64,000 nucleotides of DNA from Alphaproteobacteria bacterium (GTDB taxonomy: Bacteria; Pseudomonadota; Alphaproteobacteria; JASGCL01): the NCBI GenBank assembly GCA_965262605.1, contig CBDHFN010000002.1:153107-217106 (forward strand). The letters are read 5' to 3'. The first letter of the stretch is position 1, and each line of letters begins with the position of its first letter. Below are positions 4,720 through 14,419 of the stretch, piece by piece. The position numbers were made by a program, and so were the translations under genes. The notes under the pieces are model-generated. The model was not told the DNA's origin. It did not search any database and saw nothing but the letters and a program-made list of their open reading frames with translations.

Positions 4720-5716
4720 CTTGCCATAAATCCCCTAAAATCGCCTTAACGATTTGAAAATTTGCGGCAATATCAATTTTTGTATCAGGGTAAGTTTCGC
4801 TTAATAAAAATTTTTCTTTATGATTAAGGGGCAAAATCGCATCGGCTATTTCTTGCATTTGCTCTAATTCGCCGTTGCAATGCAAGACTAAATCACAACC
4901 AGCATTAAGGCATTTTATGGTGCGCTCATGATAAGTGCCTTGCAACGCCTTCATTGATAAATCATCGGACATTATCAAGCCATGAAAACCAATTTGTTCG
5001 CGAATCACTTCGCCCAAAATACGCTTAGACATGGTGGCGCAATTATCCGCATCAAGCGAATTGTAAATAATATGCGCCGTCATCGCCAATGGGAATAAAT
5101 TGCAATATTCAAAGGGATAAAAATCATGGGCAAGGGTTGCAAGGTCTGCCGCAACGATTGGTAAATCTTCGTGCGAATCGCAATTGGCGCGCCCATGCCC
5201 GGGAATGTGCTTGATAATGGGTTTAATGCCATAATTCATCAATGTTTTACCATATTCATGCGCCAATATCGCGATGATATTTTTATCCGCGCTAAACGCG
5301 CGATTGCCAATAATATCATGCGCGCCGCTGATGGCTAAATCAATTAAAGGCGCGCAATTAATTGTAATTCCCAATTCTTGAAATTCGCCCGCTTGCCATG
5401 CGGCATAACTTTGAATTGCTTGAATCGCTTTTTGGGAATCACGCAAATAAGCTTGCCCAAAAATCGCCATATTCGGGGCGGGCAACCATTCGGGCGGTTT
5501 TAACCTGCGCACCCTGCCGCCTTCTTGGTCAATAAGAAATTCCAAATTATGCCCGATATTTATTGATTTACATTCGTCAATTAAAGCCTTAGTTTGCGCT
5601 TTATTTTTAATATTGCGGGCGAATAATATAATGCCCCATGGTTGATGTTTGGCGATAAATTGCCGTTCCAAAAAATTAAGTTCGGTTGATTTTATGCCAA
5701 TAATAAGCGGTTTCAT
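4712..5716 (-). CDS. nagZ: Beta-N-acetylhexosaminidase NagZ (GH3)
   Basis: 334 aa with GH3 NagZ motifs (DQEGGRVRRL, IKHIPGHGRANCDSHEDLP). Confidence 0.9.
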   Translation of the reverse strand: MKPLIIGIKSTELNFLERQFIAKHQPWGIILFARNIKNKAQTKALIDECKSINIGHNLEFLIDQEGGRVRRLKPPEWLPAPNMAIFGQAYLRDSQKAIQAIQSYAAWQAGEFQELGITINCAPLIDLAISGAHDIIGNRAFSADKNIIAILAHEYGKTLMNYGIKPIIKHIPGHGRANCDSHEDLPIVAADLATLAHDFYPFEYCNLFPLAMTAHIIYNSLDADNCATMSKRILGEVIREQIGFHGLIMSDDLSMKALQGTYHERTIKCLNAGCDLVLHCNGELEQMQEIADAILPLNHKEKFLLSETYPDTKIDIAANFQIVKAILGDLWQDE

Positions 5717-5718
5717 GG

Positions 5719-6999
5719 TTAAGCTCCTGCCACTGGTTTAAGAGTAGATTGCATGATTTTTTGCCAAATTATCGTGATGATTAATAAAACCATGGGTATG
5801 GCAAAGCCTAATTTATAGGCATCTTCTAAAATCCAGCCCCAGTCCATCACCATATCAATAACCACACCAATAAGCCATTGAAAAATAAAAGCCATGACAA
5901 ATGCCAATAAATTTAACGCGCTATTCACCCGCCCGGTGATGCGTATATCAAAAACCTGAGACAACAACCCATATGTTAAAATGCCCGACCCCATACAGCC
6001 AACAACTAAAAACATGCCCCAAAAGCTGAATTGCGGGGGCAAAAAAACAATAATGGCAAAGCCAAAAATGATAATATATTGCCCCGCTAAAATTAATCCT
6101 TCGGTGCTGCAAATACCCATTTTGGGTAAAATTTGCGAACCAAAGCCAAAAATCACATATCCTAACACCATACATACCGCCGCCAATGACATGATATTAC
6201 CAACATCATGCAAGCTAAACCCCGCCACTGATTTTAAATATAACGCCCCCCATAAGAAAATAACAGCAACCTGTGAGGCTTGGGAAATCACGGTGGGCGG
6301 GGTTAAAATCCAAAATCTTTTATCGGCAAAAATAATTTTATATTGCTTAAAGCTTGCCCAAAATTCTTCTTGATTATCATTGCTTGCCTTGGGTTTTTCA
6401 AATTTCGGGGGCATGAATAAAATCATCAAGGCTATTATAAAAGTCGCAACGGCTAAAATAATAAAAACACCCCGCCAATCGGTATAATTTAGCAATATTT
6501 CCACGGGACCTGAGCCAATTAAAGCCCCAGCACCGCCCGCCATCATTTGCATATTATTCATCATGGGTAATTTTTCGCGGGCAAAACATTCGCTATACGC
6601 CTTAAAAGCCGCCATAAGACTGGCACAGACACCAAAGCCGATTAACCCCCTGCCTAAGATTAAATGCCACGATTCTGTAGCTTGGGAAAAAATCAACGCC
6701 CCTAAAACTGCAAAAAATAATAAAAACCCTTCAGTTTTGCGCGCGCCAATTCTGTCAAGCATCACCCCCATTGGAATTTGCATCAAGGTAAATGTCAAAA
6801 AATAACTTGCTGTCATTAAGCCTAAATCAGATTTTGTCAGCAAAAATTCGGTGGATAAAATTCCGCCAACCATGCCATTTACCACGCGAAATAAAAACGA
6901 AATTAAATACCCCAAAGCAAAGGGAATATAAAGCCGAACAATAAACATAAAATTTAAATTAGCATGGGACGATTGCGAATTAATCATTGGTTTCACCAT
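5719..6999 (-). CDS. MFS transporter (possibly AmpG-type muropeptide permease, from context with nagZ)
   Basis: The ORF 5719-7035 encodes 12 or more TM helices. The likely start is an internal Met (6999 or 6987) just after the cytochrome stop at 6980. The stop lies 2 nt from the nagZ start. Confidence 0.7.
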   Translation of the reverse strand: MVKPMINSQSSHANLNFMFIVRLYIPFALGYLISFLFRVVNGMVGGILSTEFLLTKSDLGLMTASYFLTFTLMQIPMGVMLDRIGARKTEGFLLFFAVLGALIFSQATESWHLILGRGLIGFGVCASLMAAFKAYSECFAREKLPMMNNMQMMAGGAGALIGSGPVEILLNYTDWRGVFIILAVATFIIALMILFMPPKFEKPKASNDNQEEFWASFKQYKIIFADKRFWILTPPTVISQASQVAVIFLWGALYLKSVAGFSLHDVGNIMSLAAVCMVLGYVIFGFGSQILPKMGICSTEGLILAGQYIIIFGFAIIVFLPPQFSFWGMFLVVGCMGSGILTYGLLSQVFDIRITGRVNSALNLLAFVMAFIFQWLIGVVIDMVMDWGWILEDAYKLGFAIPMVLLIITIIWQKIMQSTLKPVAGA

Positions 7000-8962
7000 T
7001 TTCACTTTCTGGTTTAACAATGTTAACGCCGTCAATATTTATTGTATTTTTTGTCGCATTTATTGACTTGCCATGATATAAATGGCAAGTTTTGCAATCG
7101 GTTGAAGCCCCATTTTTAACATGGCATAAATCGCAAGTATCCTTGGAGATAACATGGAAATTCCTGTCGGGTTTTGTAATGGATAAATCATGAAATTCTT
7201 CGTAATAATTTGAAACTTCATTTAACTGATGGCATGCCAAACATGCGCCATCACCCAAAATTTCATAATGCGGTTTATGTTTAAATTTTGTGTATTTTAA
7301 TTGATTTTTCTCGGGCGGATTAATTACCCAATTAGTCATCAGTATTTTCATCGCGTTATTTTCAATTTCCGATTTTTTGTCTTTTATATTTATTTGTTCT
7401 TGGGAATGGCAATTTAAGCAACCACCAACAACTTGTCGGTTATGAAATAACTCATTTATCCTATCAAAACTTGGTTGCAACAGCGGAGTTTTGAAATAAT
7501 TTATAGTTGTGTCAATCCAATTCTTAATAAATTCATCTTGATGGGATATGGGGCGATATACTATGCCGTTTCGGTCTAATGTCCAATTTTGTTTGGGGTA
7601 AAGGCTTTCAAACGATTTCACAGGATTAAATGCGTTATGAATTGGACGATTTTCATGATATTTTATAATTTCATCGCGAAATTGCCCGCCAAAATACCGC
7701 ACTATAAATTGATTGCTTAAATCGCGCGGAATGGAAAGCGTTAATTTCTTATTATTTTCATCGTTACCATCAGTAATATCCAATAATAAAAGCTTGTAAG
7801 CCCATATTAATTTAGCAATTTCTTGCAAATCTGCTTTGCTTACTTTTGATAAATCATTCAATCCAGTTGCGCGATATTTATTCATTATTTCGCTTAATTC
7901 AATTTGCGAAGTAAGCAAATAATCCACCATTGGATTAAACCAATTTTTACCGCGCTCTAAAATTGGGTATGCGCCAATAATTACATTATTATTGGCAAAC
8001 GCATTCGTGTCAATGATTGGCAATGCAATCACTTCAATGGGTTTAATACCGGGCGCGTCTTGTCCGGTTACCGTGGCGATATGGCATGACAAACCGCAAG
8101 TTTGCTCAAAAGATTTAGTTGTCATGTCTGATTTATTGCCGTCTTGGGTATTATTAATAACATGGCAAAATTGGCAATCATTCGGCGCTTCACCCAAAGC
8201 TGGATTTAAATTTGCGAATTTTTCAAAATGCCGTGCATGGTCAAAAATAATTCTGCCACGGCGTTTAAATGGAAAATTCAGAAAATTAGGATGCGTATTT
8301 TCAAAATCCGTAATATTAATTAAATGGCATTGCGTGCATACTTCATTATTATCAGTTCGGTCTGTAAATGAAGTTTTACCATGCCCGCGATGGCATTCCG
8401 CGCAATCACCGGGCGATTCTTGTAATTCGGTTGCCCCAAAAATATATCCAAACCAGCGGCGATACCACGGACGCTCTTTTAGAAATATTCCGTGTTTGGC
8501 TAAATCAAATTGTTCTTTATTATGCGGATTTTTATAATTTTCGCCAACATCATGGCACGACAGACATGATTTATTATCATCGCCTAATTTTAAGGTAAAT
8601 ACATCGTGCAAAATTGGAAAAGACAGATTTTCATTGGGTTTAATATGGCATTGTTCGCAATTTTCAATGGATGCGTGGTTCGCGGATAATGGACCCGGGC
8701 TTAAAACATTATGCCCTAAAATGCCGCTAAAAATTACCATCATCAGCACAAAAGTTGCCAAACCTAATAAAAAAGAGATAATTAACCAGAATTTACGGCT
8801 TTCATATTTTGGTTCGCAATATTCAGATATTGGCAAATTTTCCAGCGATTTACCGCATTTACCTTGAATAGTCGGTCCGTATTTACAATGAATATTATCC
8901 GCGCACTTATAATTGGCATTCGGGCGCGGAAAATATCTTTTGCGAAAATTTTCAAATTTCAT
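6980..8962 (-). CDS. Membrane-anchored multiheme cytochrome c (about 10 haem-binding sites)
   Basis: 660 aa. It has nine CxxCH motifs (CEQCH, CLSCH, CAECH, CTQCH, CQFCH, CLNCH, CLACH, CDLCH, CKTCH) plus one CxxxCH (CGLSCH). It also has an N-terminal Cys-rich segment followed by a single TM helix (FWLIISFLLGLATFVLMMVIFSGIL). Confidence 0.85.
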   Translation of the reverse strand: MKFENFRKRYFPRPNANYKCADNIHCKYGPTIQGKCGKSLENLPISEYCEPKYESRKFWLIISFLLGLATFVLMMVIFSGILGHNVLSPGPLSANHASIENCEQCHIKPNENLSFPILHDVFTLKLGDDNKSCLSCHDVGENYKNPHNKEQFDLAKHGIFLKERPWYRRWFGYIFGATELQESPGDCAECHRGHGKTSFTDRTDNNEVCTQCHLINITDFENTHPNFLNFPFKRRGRIIFDHARHFEKFANLNPALGEAPNDCQFCHVINNTQDGNKSDMTTKSFEQTCGLSCHIATVTGQDAPGIKPIEVIALPIIDTNAFANNNVIIGAYPILERGKNWFNPMVDYLLTSQIELSEIMNKYRATGLNDLSKVSKADLQEIAKLIWAYKLLLLDITDGNDENNKKLTLSIPRDLSNQFIVRYFGGQFRDEIIKYHENRPIHNAFNPVKSFESLYPKQNWTLDRNGIVYRPISHQDEFIKNWIDTTINYFKTPLLQPSFDRINELFHNRQVVGGCLNCHSQEQINIKDKKSEIENNAMKILMTNWVINPPEKNQLKYTKFKHKPHYEILGDGACLACHQLNEVSNYYEEFHDLSITKPDRNFHVISKDTCDLCHVKNGASTDCKTCHLYHGKSINATKNTINIDGVNIVKPESENGETND

Positions 8963-9975
8963 TTATAACCTACTTCTGTAAATAAAATATATTTCCATAC
9001 ATGGAATATAATTATCGCCCAAAGGCTGGGCACAAATAAGGCGTGTATTTTATAAAAAAACCGCATTATAAAATAAAAAACATGCGTATTATTTAAAATA
9101 TTTTTATTTTCAATTAAAATCTTAATTGCGTGTAATTCTTGATGAAATTCATCGCCAAAAACACGAATTAATTCATTAATAATATCCAAATTCCTGCGAT
9201 ATGCGCGTTGATTAAATTGGAATTTACCGAAATAGTCAACATAATTACTGGCGAATAATTCCACGATATTTTCCGCCTTTTTGATTAATTTTAATCGTTC
9301 ATAATATTTGAAAAATTCTTGGTGAATAAAATATTTCTCGGTATAAATTTGATTATAGCTTAATAATTCATGGTTATTAATGGCAAGTTTCGGCAAAAAC
9401 CGATTAATAATTTCTTGAATTATCCCTGAAATACATATTATCATGGCAAAAATAATAATTAAATATCCCATAAAATTTAGACTGCGGTTATTAAAAACAT
9501 GAAAATAAAATATAATCAACCAAATTAACCCCGTCATGACATGCAGATATTTCCAATCCTTGGCATTGGGCAAAGGCAAAGCACCATATCGTTTTTTTAT
9601 GCCATAAATAGTTTGAATAGCCATACCAATTAACAAAAATATCCCCAAAAGCGATTGGTTATCATAACCAACTTTATTGCCATAAACAATCAATAACCCA
9701 ATTATCGCAACGGACACAAGCAACATATTTGATAAGGAAGGTAATTTTTTGCCAATAATTTTACAATAATTATATAATAATTTAAAATCTCTAAGGCTAT
9801 ATCGGCGGGTGAACGCTTGAGTTATCATTGCTTTTAATGGTAATTTTTTTAAAAAATAATAAATATTTAAAATATTAAAATATAAATCTTTGGCAAAGCT
9901 ATATAATTTCATGGTAAATTTAACCCATAAATTTTTCATAATATTCATCAAAAATTGTTGATAATTTTCGTTCAT
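8959..9975 (-). CDS. Ferric-reductase/NOX/MsrQ-like di-haem-b membrane protein (split FRD domain with a soluble insert)
   Basis: The ORF is 8959-10086, and the likely start is Met38 at 9975, giving an ATGA overlap with the ferredoxin stop. There are six predicted TM helices. Two helices each carry an H-x13-H pair (YLHVMTGLIWLIIFYFHVF; KIHALFVPSLWAIIIFHVW), which is the bis-haem signature of ferric reductase domains. About 110 aa of soluble sequence are inserted between TM4 and TM5. Confidence 0.7.
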   Translation of the reverse strand: MNENYQQFLMNIMKNLWVKFTMKLYSFAKDLYFNILNIYYFLKKLPLKAMITQAFTRRYSLRDFKLLYNYCKIIGKKLPSLSNMLLVSVAIIGLLIVYGNKVGYDNQSLLGIFLLIGMAIQTIYGIKKRYGALPLPNAKDWKYLHVMTGLIWLIIFYFHVFNNRSLNFMGYLIIIFAMIICISGIIQEIINRFLPKLAINNHELLSYNQIYTEKYFIHQEFFKYYERLKLIKKAENIVELFASNYVDYFGKFQFNQRAYRRNLDIINELIRVFGDEFHQELHAIKILIENKNILNNTHVFYFIMRFFYKIHALFVPSLWAIIIFHVWKYILFTEVGYK

Positions 9976-10445
9976 TGCCAATCCACTAATGCCTGTCTGT
10001 CCGATAAATTCACCCGCCGCATTGCCCCAGTCGGACAAGCAGACACGCATGCCGCACCGCCAAGTCTGCCAACGCATAAATCGCATTTAACCGCTTTTTT
10101 AATTGGGGTTTCGGTCTTTTGATTAAGCAATAATTCGCCATTATTATTAAAAATATCCACTATGCGCACGGAATGGAACGGGCATGCTTGTTCGCAATTA
10201 CCGCAACCAATGCAATCATTTTCCGAAATTGAAGTTTGATATGAAGTTGCAATTGGGCGTTGAATCGCGCTTGTCGGGCAACTTGTCAAGCATTGCGGAT
10301 CCAAACAATGCAAACAAGCATTCGCAAAAATTAACTTATTATATTGCGTTCCCGATCTTGCAAATCGGGGATTACCATCATGCGCATTGGCGCAAGCACT
10401 CACGCAATCATCGCACCCCGTGCATAATTGGGAATTAATAACCAT
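9972..10445 (-). CDS. Ferredoxin with four [4Fe-4S] clusters (NapG/NrfC/DmsB-type), no signal peptide
   Basis: 157 aa with four complete cluster motifs: CTGCDDCVSAC, CLHCLDPQCLTSCP, CIGCGNCEQACP and CDLCVGRLGGAACVSACP. Confidence 0.85.
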   Translation of the reverse strand: MVINSQLCTGCDDCVSACANAHDGNPRFARSGTQYNKLIFANACLHCLDPQCLTSCPTSAIQRPIATSYQTSISENDCIGCGNCEQACPFHSVRIVDIFNNNGELLLNQKTETPIKKAVKCDLCVGRLGGAACVSACPTGAMRRVNLSDRQALVDWQ

Positions 10446-10470: not shown

Positions 10471-11598
10471 TCAGATATGAAAAAAAAAATTAACCCCTGG
10501 GTCGTAATTATTTTCAGATTTTTGGGCGATTTCTTTTCGGCGATAATTACTGATAATTTCTTTTTTTGCTAATTCCAGCGCGCTTAACGGAATAAATATC
10601 GCATCCAGCGCACCGATAGAGCTTACAGACACATTAAAAATTGGTGGTTCCTCCGATGAAGATTCCCAATATTCAATCAAGTCTTTAATCCCAAAAATAT
10701 CATCTTTAATGAGGTAATTTATAGTTTCCGTGCCAATTTCGCGGGGAATAAAAATTCGCCCATTGCCCGAAATTACTATCATTATACCATCTAATTTATC
10801 GCCTTTATCAAACAAGACTATTTCATCTTTTGTATCTTGCTTGGTAATATCGTCCTGCATACCATGGCGTTGAAATTGCGCTTGTTTTGTGATGGAAGCC
10901 AATAAATGTTCAGGGACATTTTCAAATAATTCAAAATTTTTCAAAGTATTATTCAAGACATTTACTTTATATGATTCAACGATTTGCTGATTAATAACTT
11001 GGTCGCGCAATAAAATTTGCCTTAACCCCTGCCAGCGCATTTCAATGACTTCGGCATCATCAGTCGCCACCACCGAAGCCGAACGAACAGAACGAGTCAT
11101 TGCCGCAATTTCGCCCAGCATTTGCCCAACTTTACAAGGAATTTTAATAATTGCATCATCAATCATGATTAAATCAAAACTGCTCATTTTGGCATTAACT
11201 TCATTATTAAAATGATGAAAAATATGCTTTGTGTCTGCTTCGCTACGCATTTCTTGGGCATAGTTTTTCACCATGAAAGCATTTGATATTTGATGAATAA
11301 TTTTAACGCTTGCGGTTTCTTCTTCGCCAACCAAGAAATTATCATCAGATCCTTCCAATAAAATTGTGAAATTTCCAGATTTTATAAAATAAATACTGGT
11401 CGCTAAATGCCCTTTTGACATTAAAATTTCACCGCGCTTAAATTTGCGAACGCGGCAATTTTGTTGCACAATATTTTGCAAAGTATAAGGTTCAGGGAAA
11501 TTACGCGGGTTTGCTTGGCTTAAAATTGTTTTTTCAAACAAGAAATTTTGCGCAAATTCGCTTAGCCCCCATTTATTATCAACAAATTTATCTGCCAT
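10471..11598 (-). CDS. Tandem cyclic-nucleotide-binding (CNB) domain protein with no recognisable output domain
   Basis: 375 aa with two Crp-like CNB signatures (FKRGEILMSKGHLATSIYFIKSGNFTIL and VLFDKGDKLDGIMIVISGNGRIF). I see no HTH. Confidence 0.65.
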   Translation of the reverse strand: MADKFVDNKWGLSEFAQNFLFEKTILSQANPRNFPEPYTLQNIVQQNCRVRKFKRGEILMSKGHLATSIYFIKSGNFTILLEGSDDNFLVGEEETASVKIIHQISNAFMVKNYAQEMRSEADTKHIFHHFNNEVNAKMSSFDLIMIDDAIIKIPCKVGQMLGEIAAMTRSVRSASVVATDDAEVIEMRWQGLRQILLRDQVINQQIVESYKVNVLNNTLKNFELFENVPEHLLASITKQAQFQRHGMQDDITKQDTKDEIVLFDKGDKLDGIMIVISGNGRIFIPREIGTETINYLIKDDIFGIKDLIEYWESSSEEPPIFNVSVSSIGALDAIFIPLSALELAKKEIISNYRRKEIAQKSENNYDPGVNFFFHI

Positions 11599-11600
11599 AA

Positions 11601-12860
11601 TTAATAATCCAATTCAATATCTGATGCTACTTGCGAAATACAGGCAAGCGTAAACCCATCTGGAACTGCGAAACTAGGTTGCACAATATTTTTTACTGCA
11701 CCTTTAACCTTGATTAAGCAAGCCCCGCAATTGCCAGTTTTACATCCGCTGTCCATAAATATATCATGTTCTTTGGCAATTTCAAGTATTGTTTTATCAT
11801 TCGGCGCGGGAATTTTAATATTACTGCGCAAAAAATTAATATTATGGATATTTTGGGCAACTTCTTCATGCGTCTCATTATCTAAAATTCGTTGAATTTT
11901 ATGCATTGAACGGGCATTGAAGGCTTCATAAATGAAATTTTCGGGGGGCAATCCCATTTTAATTAAATCGGGTAAAATCCCTTGAATCAAGGCATCTGAA
12001 CCGCAAAAATACACAATATAATCTGCGGGATTGCCTTGAAAATCAAAAATCTTGCTGGCTTTGGGGTGATTTGATTGATATTGTTCCGCCGCCTCATTCA
12101 TCATTTGGCGGGTAAATATCGGTATATAAGAAAAGTTTTTTTCCAACGAAAGCCCCGTTAGTTCACTGCCAAATGGTAAATTTAAAGCATCTTTTGCAAT
12201 ATGAATAATTTTAATATTTTGCATAATTGCTTCGTCAATTTCTTGCGCCATCGCATAAAATGGCGTTATACCAATACCACCCGCAAGAAAATACACTTTT
12301 TTTGTTGCATGTTCTGGGTTAAAGATAAAATTACCTTGCGGGGGGACAACGGCAATCGTATTACCAATTTTAATTTGTTTATGAATTTGCCTTGAAACGC
12401 TAAATTCATTGGTTGAATTTAAGTCTAATTTCACCGCAATTTCGTAATATTCATTTTGATTAGAATTATTAATTAAGCTATAACATCTCAGGTGCTTTTT
12501 TATTTTAGCATCGTAAAATTTACAAGTAATAAATTGACCAGCTTTAAATCTTGCTAATTTCGCCTTATTTACAGGATTAAGCCTTAATAAGACTATGTCT
12601 TTGGCGATTTCTTTTTTAATTTCAACTATATATCTTTGCGCTAAATTTTCCTTGTCAGTATGGTTAATTGCCTTGTCAATTTTGAATTTTAACCGAAATT
12701 TTTGATACGCCATAATTTCATACAAATATGATTTAAGTATTTTAGAATAAAACCGCCAGCTTAATTTAACGCAATAATAAAGCGCAACGACCATGATAAA
12801 ATACCAAATTGGATGCTGAAACATCAAATCAAAAATTTTTTGCCACGGCTGAAATTTCAT
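11601..12860 (-). CDS. Membrane-anchored FNR-family flavin reductase (FAD/NAD(P)H) with a C-terminal plant-type [2Fe-2S] ferredoxin domain
   Basis: 419 aa. It has an N-terminal TM helix, the RxYS FAD motif (RCYSLINNS), the NAD(P) motif VYFLAGGIGITPFYAM, and a C-terminal CKTGNCGAC...LAC (CX4CX2C...C). Its start forms an ATGA overlap with the stop of the methyltransferase. Confidence 0.8.
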   Translation of the reverse strand: MKFQPWQKIFDLMFQHPIWYFIMVVALYYCVKLSWRFYSKILKSYLYEIMAYQKFRLKFKIDKAINHTDKENLAQRYIVEIKKEIAKDIVLLRLNPVNKAKLARFKAGQFITCKFYDAKIKKHLRCYSLINNSNQNEYYEIAVKLDLNSTNEFSVSRQIHKQIKIGNTIAVVPPQGNFIFNPEHATKKVYFLAGGIGITPFYAMAQEIDEAIMQNIKIIHIAKDALNLPFGSELTGLSLEKNFSYIPIFTRQMMNEAAEQYQSNHPKASKIFDFQGNPADYIVYFCGSDALIQGILPDLIKMGLPPENFIYEAFNARSMHKIQRILDNETHEEVAQNIHNINFLRSNIKIPAPNDKTILEIAKEHDIFMDSGCKTGNCGACLIKVKGAVKNIVQPSFAVPDGFTLACISQVASDIELDY

Positions 12861-14419
12861 ATCATCGCACCAATTTTCAAATAATGGTTATATTTTGCGC
12901 TTACTAAATTTTTAAAATTTTGCATAATTTCATCGTCGCTTTTTGCTTCGGCATTCACTGTGATTCTGCCTGCTTTCATTAATCCCATCAAATGATCGGC
13001 AATATCACCGATAGTATGTTCGCCATTCATCAATGGAATAATAATTTTATCAGTATCATCAACCTTAGAATTATTGTGAAAAATTGTGCAAATATTGCCA
13101 TTTATTTGGCTTGAAACCGCGCCCCGCGCCCAACCATTTATCTTGGGTTTTTCATCAACTTGCACCGAGATTGGAAATTTCACGGGTGTCATCGTTAAAA
13201 ATCCGCGGGCAAATAATTGTAATATATTTGATTTAAAGAATGTTAAAATTTTATCTTGGGCTAATTCATTATTTTTATTATGAATAAATTGCACCCATTC
13301 ATTAAGCATCATGGGCAATCGGTGTCCCGCCATAATTTCTAAAACTTTATTCGGTAATTCATTTTCATTGCCGATTGAAACTTCGTTTGCACGCAATTTC
13401 CAATTGCCATTTTCAGTTCTGGACACATCAAAATGCAAATAAAAATTCATGGATTCAAGCAATTCAACATTCCAAACTTTACTTAATTTACGCTCTTTTC
13501 GGCAAACGACTGACGAACGAAATTGCCGATTCAAGACAAAATCAGCCATTTGCTCGGCATCTATGCGTTTTCTTGATTCTTCAAATATTTTTTTGACATT
13601 GGGTGCCATATTATCAAGGATATGGGCAATGGCATTGCTTTCCGCGACAAATGCCAAGCCATTATTTTCGCACATGCTATTAAATTCATGAAAATATAGT
13701 GGCTCATTAATGCCTTCCAATAATTCGTGCGACAAATAATAATCAGGGGCATTCATCCAAGTATCATAACGGTTACGCAGTTCTTTCACTAAAATATTTT
13801 CATTTTCGCCCGCTAATTGAGAGATTTCTTCAAAAAATTTTTTAGATTTTTCCAGTTGTAATTTTTTATCTTTGCTATATTTTCTGCCTTCATACATCAT
13901 AATATCGCGAATTGTTAATAAAAAATTCCAGCCCGGACGCGTATTATAACTTAAAATCGCTAAACCATCGTCGGTTAAACTATGTTGCAGGTTTAATAAA
14001 ATTGCTTTTTGCACATGATCCGGCACCCATGAAAAAACACCATGGCAAATTATATAATCAAATTTTCCCATTAAAGTTGCATAATCAGCAATTGAACCAC
14101 TTATGAAATGTATATTTTCCACGCCACCATTGGTTGCTATCCTGCGTGCTTCGGCAATTTGTTTATCGGAAATATCTATGCCAAAAAATTGCCCTTGGGG
14201 GAATTTAATTGCCATGGGAAAAAGATTATTACCAATCGCGCAACCAATCTCCAAAACCCGCATTTTATCCATCGGCGTTGGGTTTAAACCAAATAATTTG
14301 CCGATTAAATATAAATTATCGGGGTGCGTGTTCGCATGCGTGCCACCCGGATATAATATATCATTATAACTATCTCTTGCATCGGCTTCGGAATAATCGG
14401 TCATATTTTCCCCAATCAA
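12857..14419 (-). CDS. Class I SAM-dependent methyltransferase with a C-terminal regulatory-type extension
   Basis: 520 aa. The N-terminal Rossmann SAM motif is VLEIGCAIGNNLFPMA...DYIICHGVFSWV. The roughly 300 aa C-terminal extension resembles methyltransferase regulatory domains. Confidence 0.7.
   Translation of the reverse strand: MIGENMTDYSEADARDSYNDILYPGGTHANTHPDNLYLIGKLFGLNPTPMDKMRVLEIGCAIGNNLFPMAIKFPQGQFFGIDISDKQIAEARRIATNGGVENIHFISGSIADYATLMGKFDYIICHGVFSWVPDHVQKAILLNLQHSLTDDGLAILSYNTRPGWNFLLTIRDIMMYEGRKYSKDKKLQLEKSKKFFEEISQLAGENENILVKELRNRYDTWMNAPDYYLSHELLEGINEPLYFHEFNSMCENNGLAFVAESNAIAHILDNMAPNVKKIFEESRKRIDAEQMADFVLNRQFRSSVVCRKERKLSKVWNVELLESMNFYLHFDVSRTENGNWKLRANEVSIGNENELPNKVLEIMAGHRLPMMLNEWVQFIHNKNNELAQDKILTFFKSNILQLFARGFLTMTPVKFPISVQVDEKPKINGWARGAVSSQINGNICTIFHNNSKVDDTDKIIIPLMNGEHTIGDIADHLMGLMKAGRITVNAEAKSDDEIMQNFKNLVSAKYNHYLKIGAMI

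Follow-up and report, generated by a model that had tools for sequence, protein, structure and literature searches.

The window analysed here is a stretch of 64 kb (64,000 nucleotides of contig CBDHFN010000002.1), and the gene under study, ptdF, lies on its minus strand in a run made up of a methyltransferase gene, ptdC, a split ptdE, ptdF, ptdG, a major facilitator superfamily (MFS) transporter gene, nagZ, scpA, and scpB. The run has no credible terminators, and most of its junctions are overlaps of 4 nucleotides (nt) or gaps of 2 nt. Judged from its architecture and family homology, the gene encodes a divergent PtdF, a protein with five transmembrane (TM) helices that very likely forms a bis-haem conduit across the membrane. 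The gene names are those of the ptdABCDEFG cluster, named in one preprint on Alphaproteobacteria from marine oxygen-deficient zones, that preprint calling PtdF a "transmembrane ferric reductase-like protein" (bioRxiv 10.1101/2023.11.21.568154).

The longest open reading frame (ORF) at the site (8959..10086, minus strand) counts 375 residues, and the public annotation (P0001) keeps this 375-residue form. It shares 115 nt, read in a different frame, with the upstream 4Fe-4S ORF (9972..10445) through codons 1-37, an overlapping N-terminal extension that the first-pass annotation had already described, and an ATG at 9975-9973 shares an ATGA with the TGA stop (9974-9972) of the upstream ORF. The sole close homologue found by phmmer among 1.84 billion representative proteins (P0004, 339 residues, 36% identity) aligns to residues 8-333 of the 338-residue form beginning at this ATG, and its own start lies 2 nt past the stop of its upstream gene. 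Because of the ATGA overlap and the equivalent start of P0004, Met38 (9975) is taken as the real start, in agreement with the first-pass annotation, and the residues of PtdF are numbered from it. The gene comprises the following features:

8959..9975, minus strand: ptdF coding sequence, 338 residues, predicted five-TM bis-haem b protein (start ATG 9975-9973; ATGA overlap, P0004, alignment A1)
9976..10086, minus strand: spurious 37-codon 5' extension, an out-of-frame reading of the ptdE 3' end (absent from P0004 and from all members of 262-283 residues)
9730..9975, minus strand: N-terminal extension of about 82 residues, basic, net charge +11 (low-confidence helical, pLDDT 49-73)
9670..9729, minus strand: TM1, residues 83-102, predicted in to out (hydropathy, positive-inside rule)
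9595..9657, minus strand: TM2, residues 107-127, with invariant G111 (hydropathy, family alignment)
9493..9552, minus strand: TM3, residues 142-161, with W141-x3-H145-x13-H159 (histidine codons 9543-9541 and 9501-9499; sequence read directly)
9400..9471, minus strand: TM4, residues 169-192, with invariant G184, predicted out to in (hydropathy, alignment, positive-inside rule)
9061..9399, minus strand: predicted cytoplasmic helical domain, residues 193-305 (spacer length, AlphaFold2, flanking charge bias)
8986..9060, minus strand: TM5, residues 306-330, with (W/F)307-x3-H311-x13-H325 (histidine codons 9045-9043 and 9003-9001), followed by a short, predicted periplasmic C-terminus

By hydropathy, PtdF has five hydrophobic segments (approximately residues 83-102, 107-127, 142-161, 169-192, and 306-330), with only about eight residues after TM5, and it departs in this from the six-helix bundle of FRD, MsrQ, and NOX proteins that had served as its yardstick. 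Exactly two H-x13-H pairs are present, H145/H159 within TM3 and H311/H325 within TM5, and the expectation that both pairs fall inside membrane helices is confirmed by the hydropathy profile. The distance from H159 to H311 is 151 residues, made up of TM4 and a hydrophilic part about 113 residues long (193-305); the earlier figure of about 110 residues between the histidine helices is right for the soluble part and wrong for the whole spacing. Two H-x13-H pairs also appear in 1.6% of shuffled PtdF sequences, so the pattern is modest taken alone. Its weight comes from conservation, since all four histidines are kept in 42/42 aligned family members and in 88/88 loci, and it is their invariance across the 88 loci that makes a bis-haem conduit very likely. 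The hydropathy of the N-terminal extension is too low for a TM helix. This extra region of about 80 residues is peculiar to the window PtdF and P0004 and is poorly conserved, typical members having about 13 residues before TM1; a BLASTP alignment of the window PtdF with P0004 begins only at residue 75.

The phmmer search against the 1.84 billion representatives gave 62 matches at E≤1e-3, most of them of 262-283 residues and covering the query from about 84 to 333, the soluble domain included; a word-indexed protein search with the window protein returned nothing but itself. Alignment A1 holds 42 family members with 16-36% identity to the query, the typical members being only 16-22% identical to the window PtdF. 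Its invariant columns are G111, H145, H159, G184, L294, H311, and H325, and W141, G149, P195, Y241, K291, D295, and W307 are nearly invariant. With a profile made from A1, PtdF was recovered in 88 loci (L001-L088); a hidden Markov model was built for each Ptd component, and the ORFs of these loci were labelled. The closest relative of the window PtdF comes from assembly GCA_013572995.1 and is also present in SRA run SRR10036045.

A search with the degenerate TM5 pattern L[KRQ]xWLF[VI]H[IV]P among GTDB species representatives confirmed at least 585 ptdF loci, nearly all of them from uncultured organisms. The best 80 of these are mainly metagenome-assembled genomes of Planctomycetota and Verrucomicrobiota, and the other taxa among the best 80 are Poribacteria, Latescibacterota, SAR324, Omnitrophota, Lentisphaerales, and Alphaproteobacteria. 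Five records (L054, L057, L059, L065, and L067) are titled "Klebsiella pneumoniae", "uncultured Klebsiella sp." or "Akkermansia muciniphila" though their ptdCEFG loci are Verrucomicrobia-like; these titles look unreliable and were left out of the taxonomic range.

The spacer between the second histidine of TM3 and the first histidine of TM5 measures 151-162 residues in 88/88 loci, with a median of 158. The window value is among the shortest, 151 residues being found also in 3/88 loci. Because this length is conserved across all 88 loci, the soluble segment is a hallmark of the family, and the first-pass view of it as an insertion special to this protein is not sustained. AlphaFold2 with the family alignment yields a model of mean pLDDT 82.9 and pTM 0.69, in which residues 211-330, most of the soluble domain together with TM5, have block means of about 92-97; the single-sequence model is poor (pLDDT 55.7). 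The predicted helices of the soluble segment span residues 207-230, 232-250, and 256-273, and a 55-residue helix (278-332) continues from it as TM5. According to the model, the segment forms a compact helical bundle at the membrane face and is no free coiled coil. It is hydrophilic, as had been proposed, and helical, and only the coiled-coil-like character falls away.

Net charges across the alignment amount to +3.2 at the N-terminus and +2.3 in loop 2-3, while loops 1-2 and 3-4 are near zero. By the positive-inside rule, this bias would make the N-terminus and the helical domain cytoplasmic and the C-terminus periplasmic, and TM3 and TM5 would be parallel, both running in to out. A domain placed in the cytoplasm cannot face the periplasmic haem domain of the cytochrome PtdG. 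The role of docking site, previously suggested for either the ferredoxin or the cytochrome, is then plausible toward the iron-sulfur (Fe-S) protein and toward the cytoplasmic N-terminus of the cytochrome, with its periplasmic haem domain out of reach. Whether the conserved domain docks the ferredoxin domain of PtdE over the inner haem is an evenly balanced matter.

Regarding family membership, Pfam Ferric_reduct (PF01794) does not match the window protein at E≤1 and matches one of the 42 relatives at E≤0.01 (E 0.0017). The best Pfam signal, DUF4405 (PF14358), is sub-threshold (18.4 bits against a cut-off of 26.7, E 0.0032) and covers residues 110-162, that is, TM2-TM3 with H145 and H159 included, at profile positions 2-64 of 66; it appears at E≤0.01 in 10/42 relatives (best E 2.5e-4). 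In the comparison with DUF4405, PtdF has the four histidines but five TM helices and a large cytoplasmic domain. Ni_hydr_CYTB, the prokaryotic cytochrome b561 family (PF01292), leaves the window protein unmatched and gives sub-threshold matches in 4/42 relatives at E≤0.01. NCBIfam has no match for the window PtdF, and the family is without a Pfam or NCBIfam model of its own. Also, hhalign gives a probability of 0.1% for PtdF against Escherichia coli YodB, 3% against E. coli MsrQ, and 1.6% against an MsrQ alignment, the last test being weak because that alignment is shallow (all 120 listed matches are >75% identical, nearly all >82%). In the MsrQ comparison, hhalign puts the TM5 motif K-x-W-x3-H...H of PtdF on K-x-W-x2-L-H151...H164 of MsrQ, a non-significant placement. 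The possibility of a duplicated hairpin was considered by aligning TM2-3 with TM4-5, which brings TM3 in register with TM5 at a non-significant probability of 5.6%. A sequence-profile search of the PDB with PtdF was empty, and Foldseek against the PDB found nothing below E=0.3.

On these comparisons, PtdF is best left out of Ferric_reduct, DUF4405, and Ni_hydr_CYTB; it would work like them, with membership unproven, and it can be likened to FRD proteins only at the level of a loose superfamily or of analogy. The description "ferric-reductase-like di-haem membrane protein" therefore stands in its second half, the protein being very probably di-haem with its invariant H-x13-H on two parallel helices. 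Its first half, membership in Ferric_reduct, gains nothing from the profile check, where the window protein shows just the sub-threshold DUF4405 signal.

Since PtdF has no significant match to haem protein families, its invariant histidines might instead bind a metal ion, or the protein might be a sensor that signals through a HAMP/MCP-type four-helix bundle, an idea with which a neighbouring gene carrying cyclic-nucleotide-binding domains would agree. The top Foldseek matches are indeed four-helix-bundle sensor domains (McpS and TorS, E 0.3-1), but they are non-significant and concern periplasmic ligand-binding domains. Moreover, the same W-x3-H-x13-H motif on two parallel TM helices is the classic mark of bis-haem proteins, PtdF contains no output domain (kinase, GGDEF, or DNA-binding), and ptdF is always flanked by redox partner genes that act on both sides of the membrane. 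A PtdF without haem is accordingly considered very improbable. The sensor-domain reading drawn from the McpS and TorS matches was rejected, given their E≥0.3.

The redox partners of PtdF in the window are encoded by the following features:

11601..12860, minus strand: ptdC, TM anchor, FNR-like FAD/NAD(P)H domain, and plant-type 2Fe-2S domain (Pfam FAD_binding_6, NAD_binding_1, Fer2)
10471..11598, minus strand: ptdE N-terminal half, cyclic-nucleotide-binding domains (Pfam cNMP_binding, E 1e-18; aligns with fused PtdE)
10480..10489, minus strand: T10 homopolymer, +1 frameshift splitting ptdE (deleting one T gives a single ORF of 541 residues)
9972..10445, minus strand: ptdE C-terminal half, four-cluster [4Fe-4S] ferredoxin domain (Pfam Fer4 families; 16 Cys in four groups)
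6980..8962, minus strand: ptdG, membrane-anchored decahaem cytochrome c (nine CxxCH and one CxxxCH; ptdG start and ptdF stop share an ATGA)
8810..8926, minus strand: PtdG residues 13-51, cytoplasmic Cys4 motif RPN...C-x5-C-x9-C-x12-C-x-P, ahead of the TM anchor
8717..8791, minus strand: PtdG TM anchor, residues 58-82 (hydropathy peak of 2.79 after the Cys4 motif)

PtdC carries the motifs RCYS for FAD and GGIGITP for NAD(P)H and a C-terminal C-x4-C-x2-C-x29-C for 2Fe-2S; in its N-terminal TM anchor the positive side comes after the helix, hence the protein would face the cytoplasm. The ORF immediately upstream of ptdF, treated by the first-pass annotation as a ferredoxin gene in its own right, aligns with the C-terminal third of the fused PtdE of 543-579 residues found at other loci, and is thus the C-terminal half of a frameshift-split ptdE. 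The restored gene reads VNFFFISENIVAGTEVMVINS, matching VNYFFIEENLIAGTEVMVINS in L001, and its 541 residues are colinear with the fused proteins. Three causes are conceivable for the split: an error in sequencing the homopolymer, a real split or decay of the gene, or a frameshift that transcriptional slippage rescues. The 16 Cys in four groups imply four [4Fe-4S] sites in PtdE, whose nearest solved relatives are the electron-wire subunits HycB3/B4, HycB, FdnH, and PsrB. In its N-terminal half, the first cyclic-nucleotide-binding domain has an intact phosphate-binding cassette (GEIAAMTRSVRSA, residues 162-174) that is conserved in the other aligned PtdE proteins, which suggests real binding of cAMP or cGMP on an electron-transfer subunit.

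On the other side of ptdF, ptdG is the only multihaem ORF in the 64-kb window. The haem c domain of PtdG must be periplasmic and its N-terminus cytoplasmic. Residues R13, P14, N15, C20, C26, G29, G34, C36, C49, and P51 of this N-terminus are invariant in four homologues of 26-59% identity. The Cys4 motif has the general form RPN..C-x5-8-C-x2-GP..G-x-C-x5-12-C-x-P, with one or two copies at other loci and two in many, and a strict regular expression for it matches 53/76 full-length PtdG homologues, the remainder showing comparable repeats rich in Cys. For a periplasmic multihaem cytochrome, it is unusual to carry a metal-binding knuckle (Zn or Fe-S) on the cytoplasmic side. At the junctions of ptdE with ptdF and of ptdF with ptdG, the ATGA overlaps of 4 nt imply translational coupling of these three genes.

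Two further genes of the run adjoin the module:

12857..14419, minus strand: PKMT-like S-adenosylmethionine methyltransferase (Pfam Methyltransf_*, MethyTransf_Reg, PKMT_2nd; 4-nt overlap with the ptdC start)
5719..7035, minus strand: MFS transporter directly downstream of ptdG (Pfam MFS_1; the listed TTG start is doubtful)

With the TTG start, the transporter gene overlaps the end of ptdG by 56 nt (6980-7035), against 26 nt in L001; a start at one of the in-frame ATGs that lie 11 and 15 codons further on would shorten the overlap to a length like that in L001. The methyltransferase and the transporter are syntenic with ptdCEFG, overlapping ptd genes, in the window and in the closest relative (L001/L002; counterparts at 5571-7115 and 12986-14245 of L001), and other genes flank ptdCEFG in L006; both may be lineage-specific accessory genes. 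The wider neighbours (MlaE, ScpAB, NagZ, DksA, Opp) in DNA of about 38% GC point to an AT-rich Gram-negative organism, probably a proteobacterium. No Rfam family reaches its gathering score across the 64-kb window.

Across the 88 loci, the gene order is C-E-F-G wherever the length of the contig allows it. The commonest form is plain CEFG (39 loci), found mainly in Verrucomicrobiota and without the pentahaem PtdA, the porin PtdB, and the tetrahaem PtdD, none of which lies within the 64-kb window either. CDDEFG, with two tetrahaem genes, is typical of Planctomycetota (11 loci), ABCDEFG occurs in eight, and the rest are mostly variants or truncations at contig ends. Loci L007, L019, L025, L034, and others have the full A-G order with 5/4/10 haem motifs, as in the preprint.

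Taken together, PtdC, PtdE, PtdF, and PtdG probably form an NAD(P)H-fed system that exports electrons across the inner membrane and bypasses quinones, with the cytoplasmic domain of PtdF docking PtdE. In this scheme, NAD(P)H would reduce the FAD of membrane-anchored PtdC and, through it, the 2Fe-2S cluster of the same protein, from where the electrons would move on to PtdE and through its four [4Fe-4S] clusters, perhaps gated by the cyclic-nucleotide-binding domains of this protein. Within PtdF, they would cross the membrane by the inner haem b first and the outer one second. The arrangement predicted for TM3 and TM5, parallel and with the same W-x3-H-x13-H motif, is the one that bis-His ligation of two haems in a stack requires: H145 and H311 would be the ligands of the haem b near the cytoplasmic face and H159 and H325 those of the second one near the periplasmic face, the two forming a wire of about 20 Å across the membrane. 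The cytoplasmic domain would hold the ferredoxin domain of PtdE in place over the inner haem, and perhaps the Cys4 N-terminus of PtdG as well. In the solved Fdn-N structure (1kqf), FdnH docks on a di-haem cytochrome b. The electrons would then exit to the ten c haems of PtdG in the periplasm and, in the longer clusters, continue to PtdD and the PtdA/PtdB porin-cytochrome pair. By analogy with known reductases, an outward flow is on balance the favoured direction.

The presence of FdnH among the nearest solved relatives of PtdE raises the question of quinones, because most of the characterised di-haem b anchors that dock four-cluster Fe-S subunits, such as FdnI and NarI, are quinone reactive, and extracellular electron transfer in Gram-negative bacteria normally begins at quinol dehydrogenases. 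PtdF could accordingly be a quinone-interacting cytochrome b, comparable to NarI, FdnI, CybB, or CbcL, placed between the quinone pool and PtdG, with PtdC and PtdE feeding or draining the pool via PtdF in a quinone-coupled respiratory complex. The four of 42 members with sub-threshold Ni_hydr_CYTB matches would be in line with this, but PtdF has no significant similarity to any quinone-reactive cytochrome b, and the NAD(P)H flavoprotein and cytoplasmic Fe-S wire of its own, which the module always carries, would be superfluous in a simple quinol:cytochrome c oxidoreductase. A quinone-coupled PtdF is thus regarded as unlikely.

A different question is that of direction, since the same structure could work inward, as in import of the Tmc, Hmc, and Dsr type, with a periplasmic donor of low potential handing electrons to PtdG and with PtdF, PtdE, and PtdC passing them on to cytoplasmic NAD(P)+. 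The plan of periplasmic multihaem cytochrome c, haem b, and cytoplasmic Fe-S protein resembles TmcABCD, and the NCBIfam matches go the same way, HmcA being the best, weak match of PtdG and HmcB, DsrO, and QrcC being among those of PtdE. The preprint reports ptd genes from many nitrite oxidisers (Nitrospirales) and sees a possible connection with nitrogen cycling (bioRxiv 10.1101/2023.11.21.568154). Nonetheless, inward movement opposes the membrane potential, and the reduction of NAD(P)+ requires a donor near -320 mV. Oxidation of NAD(P)H is the normal reaction of FNR-type reductases whose 2Fe-2S domain is C-terminal, and many loci, those of the ABCDEFG form, add a porin and a pentahaem cytochrome, a pair that the preprint likens to the porin-cytochrome complexes of extracellular electron transfer (bioRxiv 10.1101/2023.11.21.568154). 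Inward operation appears quite improbable, more so than a coupling to quinones.

Returning to NAD(P)H-fed export, several observations count against it. PtdF has no significant match in sequence or fold to characterised haem proteins, whether by Pfam, PDB profile, or Foldseek, and the positive-inside rule is the sole basis of its topology. The outward direction is likewise taken solely from the known behaviour of FNR-type reductases, and the Tmc and Hmc complexes of sulfate reducers carry electrons inward through a similar chain of cytochrome c, cytochrome b, and Fe-S protein. PtdF might also have a quinone site. The window PtdF departs from conserved residues of the domain (Y241F, D295N, W307F) and has K at position 251, where the consensus is H; and with ptdE frameshifted, the module may be impaired in this genome. 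In the literature, no ptd work was found beyond the one preprint and no experimental study of any family member; the preprint describes ptd function as "completely unknown", and its supplementary files contain no PtdF text (bioRxiv 10.1101/2023.11.21.568154).

The family can now be defined by its hallmarks: five TM helices, W-x3-H-x13-H twice, a cytoplasmic helical domain of fixed length, and a Cys4-tagged cytochrome partner. In the window itself, the annotation changes at three points, namely the start of ptdF, the "ferredoxin", which becomes half of ptdE, and a hypothetical protein, which becomes PtdF. The family is widespread (at least 585 species-level genomes) though it has no solved structure, no Pfam or NCBIfam model, and no experimental study in the literature found. 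Most of the characterised bacterial respiratory routes out of the cytoplasmic membrane begin at the quinone pool. If the proposed scheme is true, it would add a new route, with NAD(P)H as the direct electron source and a periplasmic decahaem cytochrome as the acceptor, Fe-S clusters and two b haems in between, and perhaps control by cyclic nucleotides. A bolder and more tentative possibility is that PtdCEFG represents a widespread and hitherto uncharacterised class of quinone-independent transmembrane NAD(P)H:cytochrome c oxidoreductases, like a NOX or MsrQ system split into subunits, in which a four-cluster ferredoxin gated by cyclic nucleotides would dock on the cytoplasmic helical domain of the five-TM bis-haem protein, and the Cys4 knuckle and the TM helix of PtdG would replace the sixth helix. 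Planctomycetota, Verrucomicrobiota, and others, including this AT-rich proteobacterium, would in that case export reducing power straight from the cytoplasm to the periplasm or the cell surface in a regulated manner.

With respect to known systems, the cluster already carries the name ptdABCDEFG, and PtdF itself is a variant of the bis-haem transmembrane conduit of characterised systems. The family profile recovers full A-G loci like those of the preprint, with the four histidines and the spacer conserved. However, the preprint describes ABCDEFG only, whereas the window has just C-E-F-G; the passages of it that were searched give PtdE two 4Fe-4S clusters, whereas the sequences analysed here have four Cys groups; and those passages mention neither the cytoplasmic domain nor the histidine pattern of PtdF (bioRxiv 10.1101/2023.11.21.568154).

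Among the small bacterial membrane proteins with four central conserved histidines on TM helices, PtdF resembles the DUF4405, MsrQ-like, and PepSY_TM cytochromes associated with flavinylation, which are proposed to move electrons across the cytoplasmic membrane (PMC11334425). Experiments have demonstrated haem b binding by a DUF4405 protein, which was modelled with four central histidines, as in MsrQ- and PepSY-type cytochromes (PMC11334425). Nonetheless, DUF4405 is described as having six TM helices, without a cytoplasmic domain of 110 residues (PMC11334425). Its partners are ApbE-flavinylated extracytosolic proteins, whereas PtdF would have an Fe-S/NAD(P)H input and a decahaem output.

The similarity to the FRD superfamily (NOX, FRE, STEAP, MsrQ) is one of plan. 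The haem helices would be the third and fifth TM helices in parallel, the histidine spacing of 13 in PtdF compares with 12-13 in FRD proteins, and the electrons would be supplied by an FNR-type NAD(P)H flavoprotein and move outward across the membrane. The nearest functional analogy is MsrQ, which together with Fre feeds the periplasmic MsrP. However, in the ptd module a 2Fe-2S cluster and a four-cluster ferredoxin stand between flavin and haem, and PtdF has five TM helices instead of six and a cytoplasmic helical domain between TM4 and TM5.

Finally, FdnI/FdnH, NarI/NarH, TmcC, HmcE, and DsrM share with the proposed PtdF two stacked b haems linking an Fe-S subunit of the HycB/FdnH type to a partner on the opposite side of the membrane, and Tmc and Hmc too connect a periplasmic multihaem cytochrome c with a cytoplasmic Fe-S protein. 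However, no sequence similarity of PtdF to FdnI, NarI, TmcC, HmcE, or DsrM was detected, and the haem ligands are arranged in another way, coming from three helices in FdnI and from helices II and V in NarI, unlike in PtdF. Moreover, the Fdn, Nar, Tmc, Hmc, and Dsr systems are coupled to quinones or have an HdrD-like subunit at their end, where the ptd module has an NAD(P)H flavoprotein.

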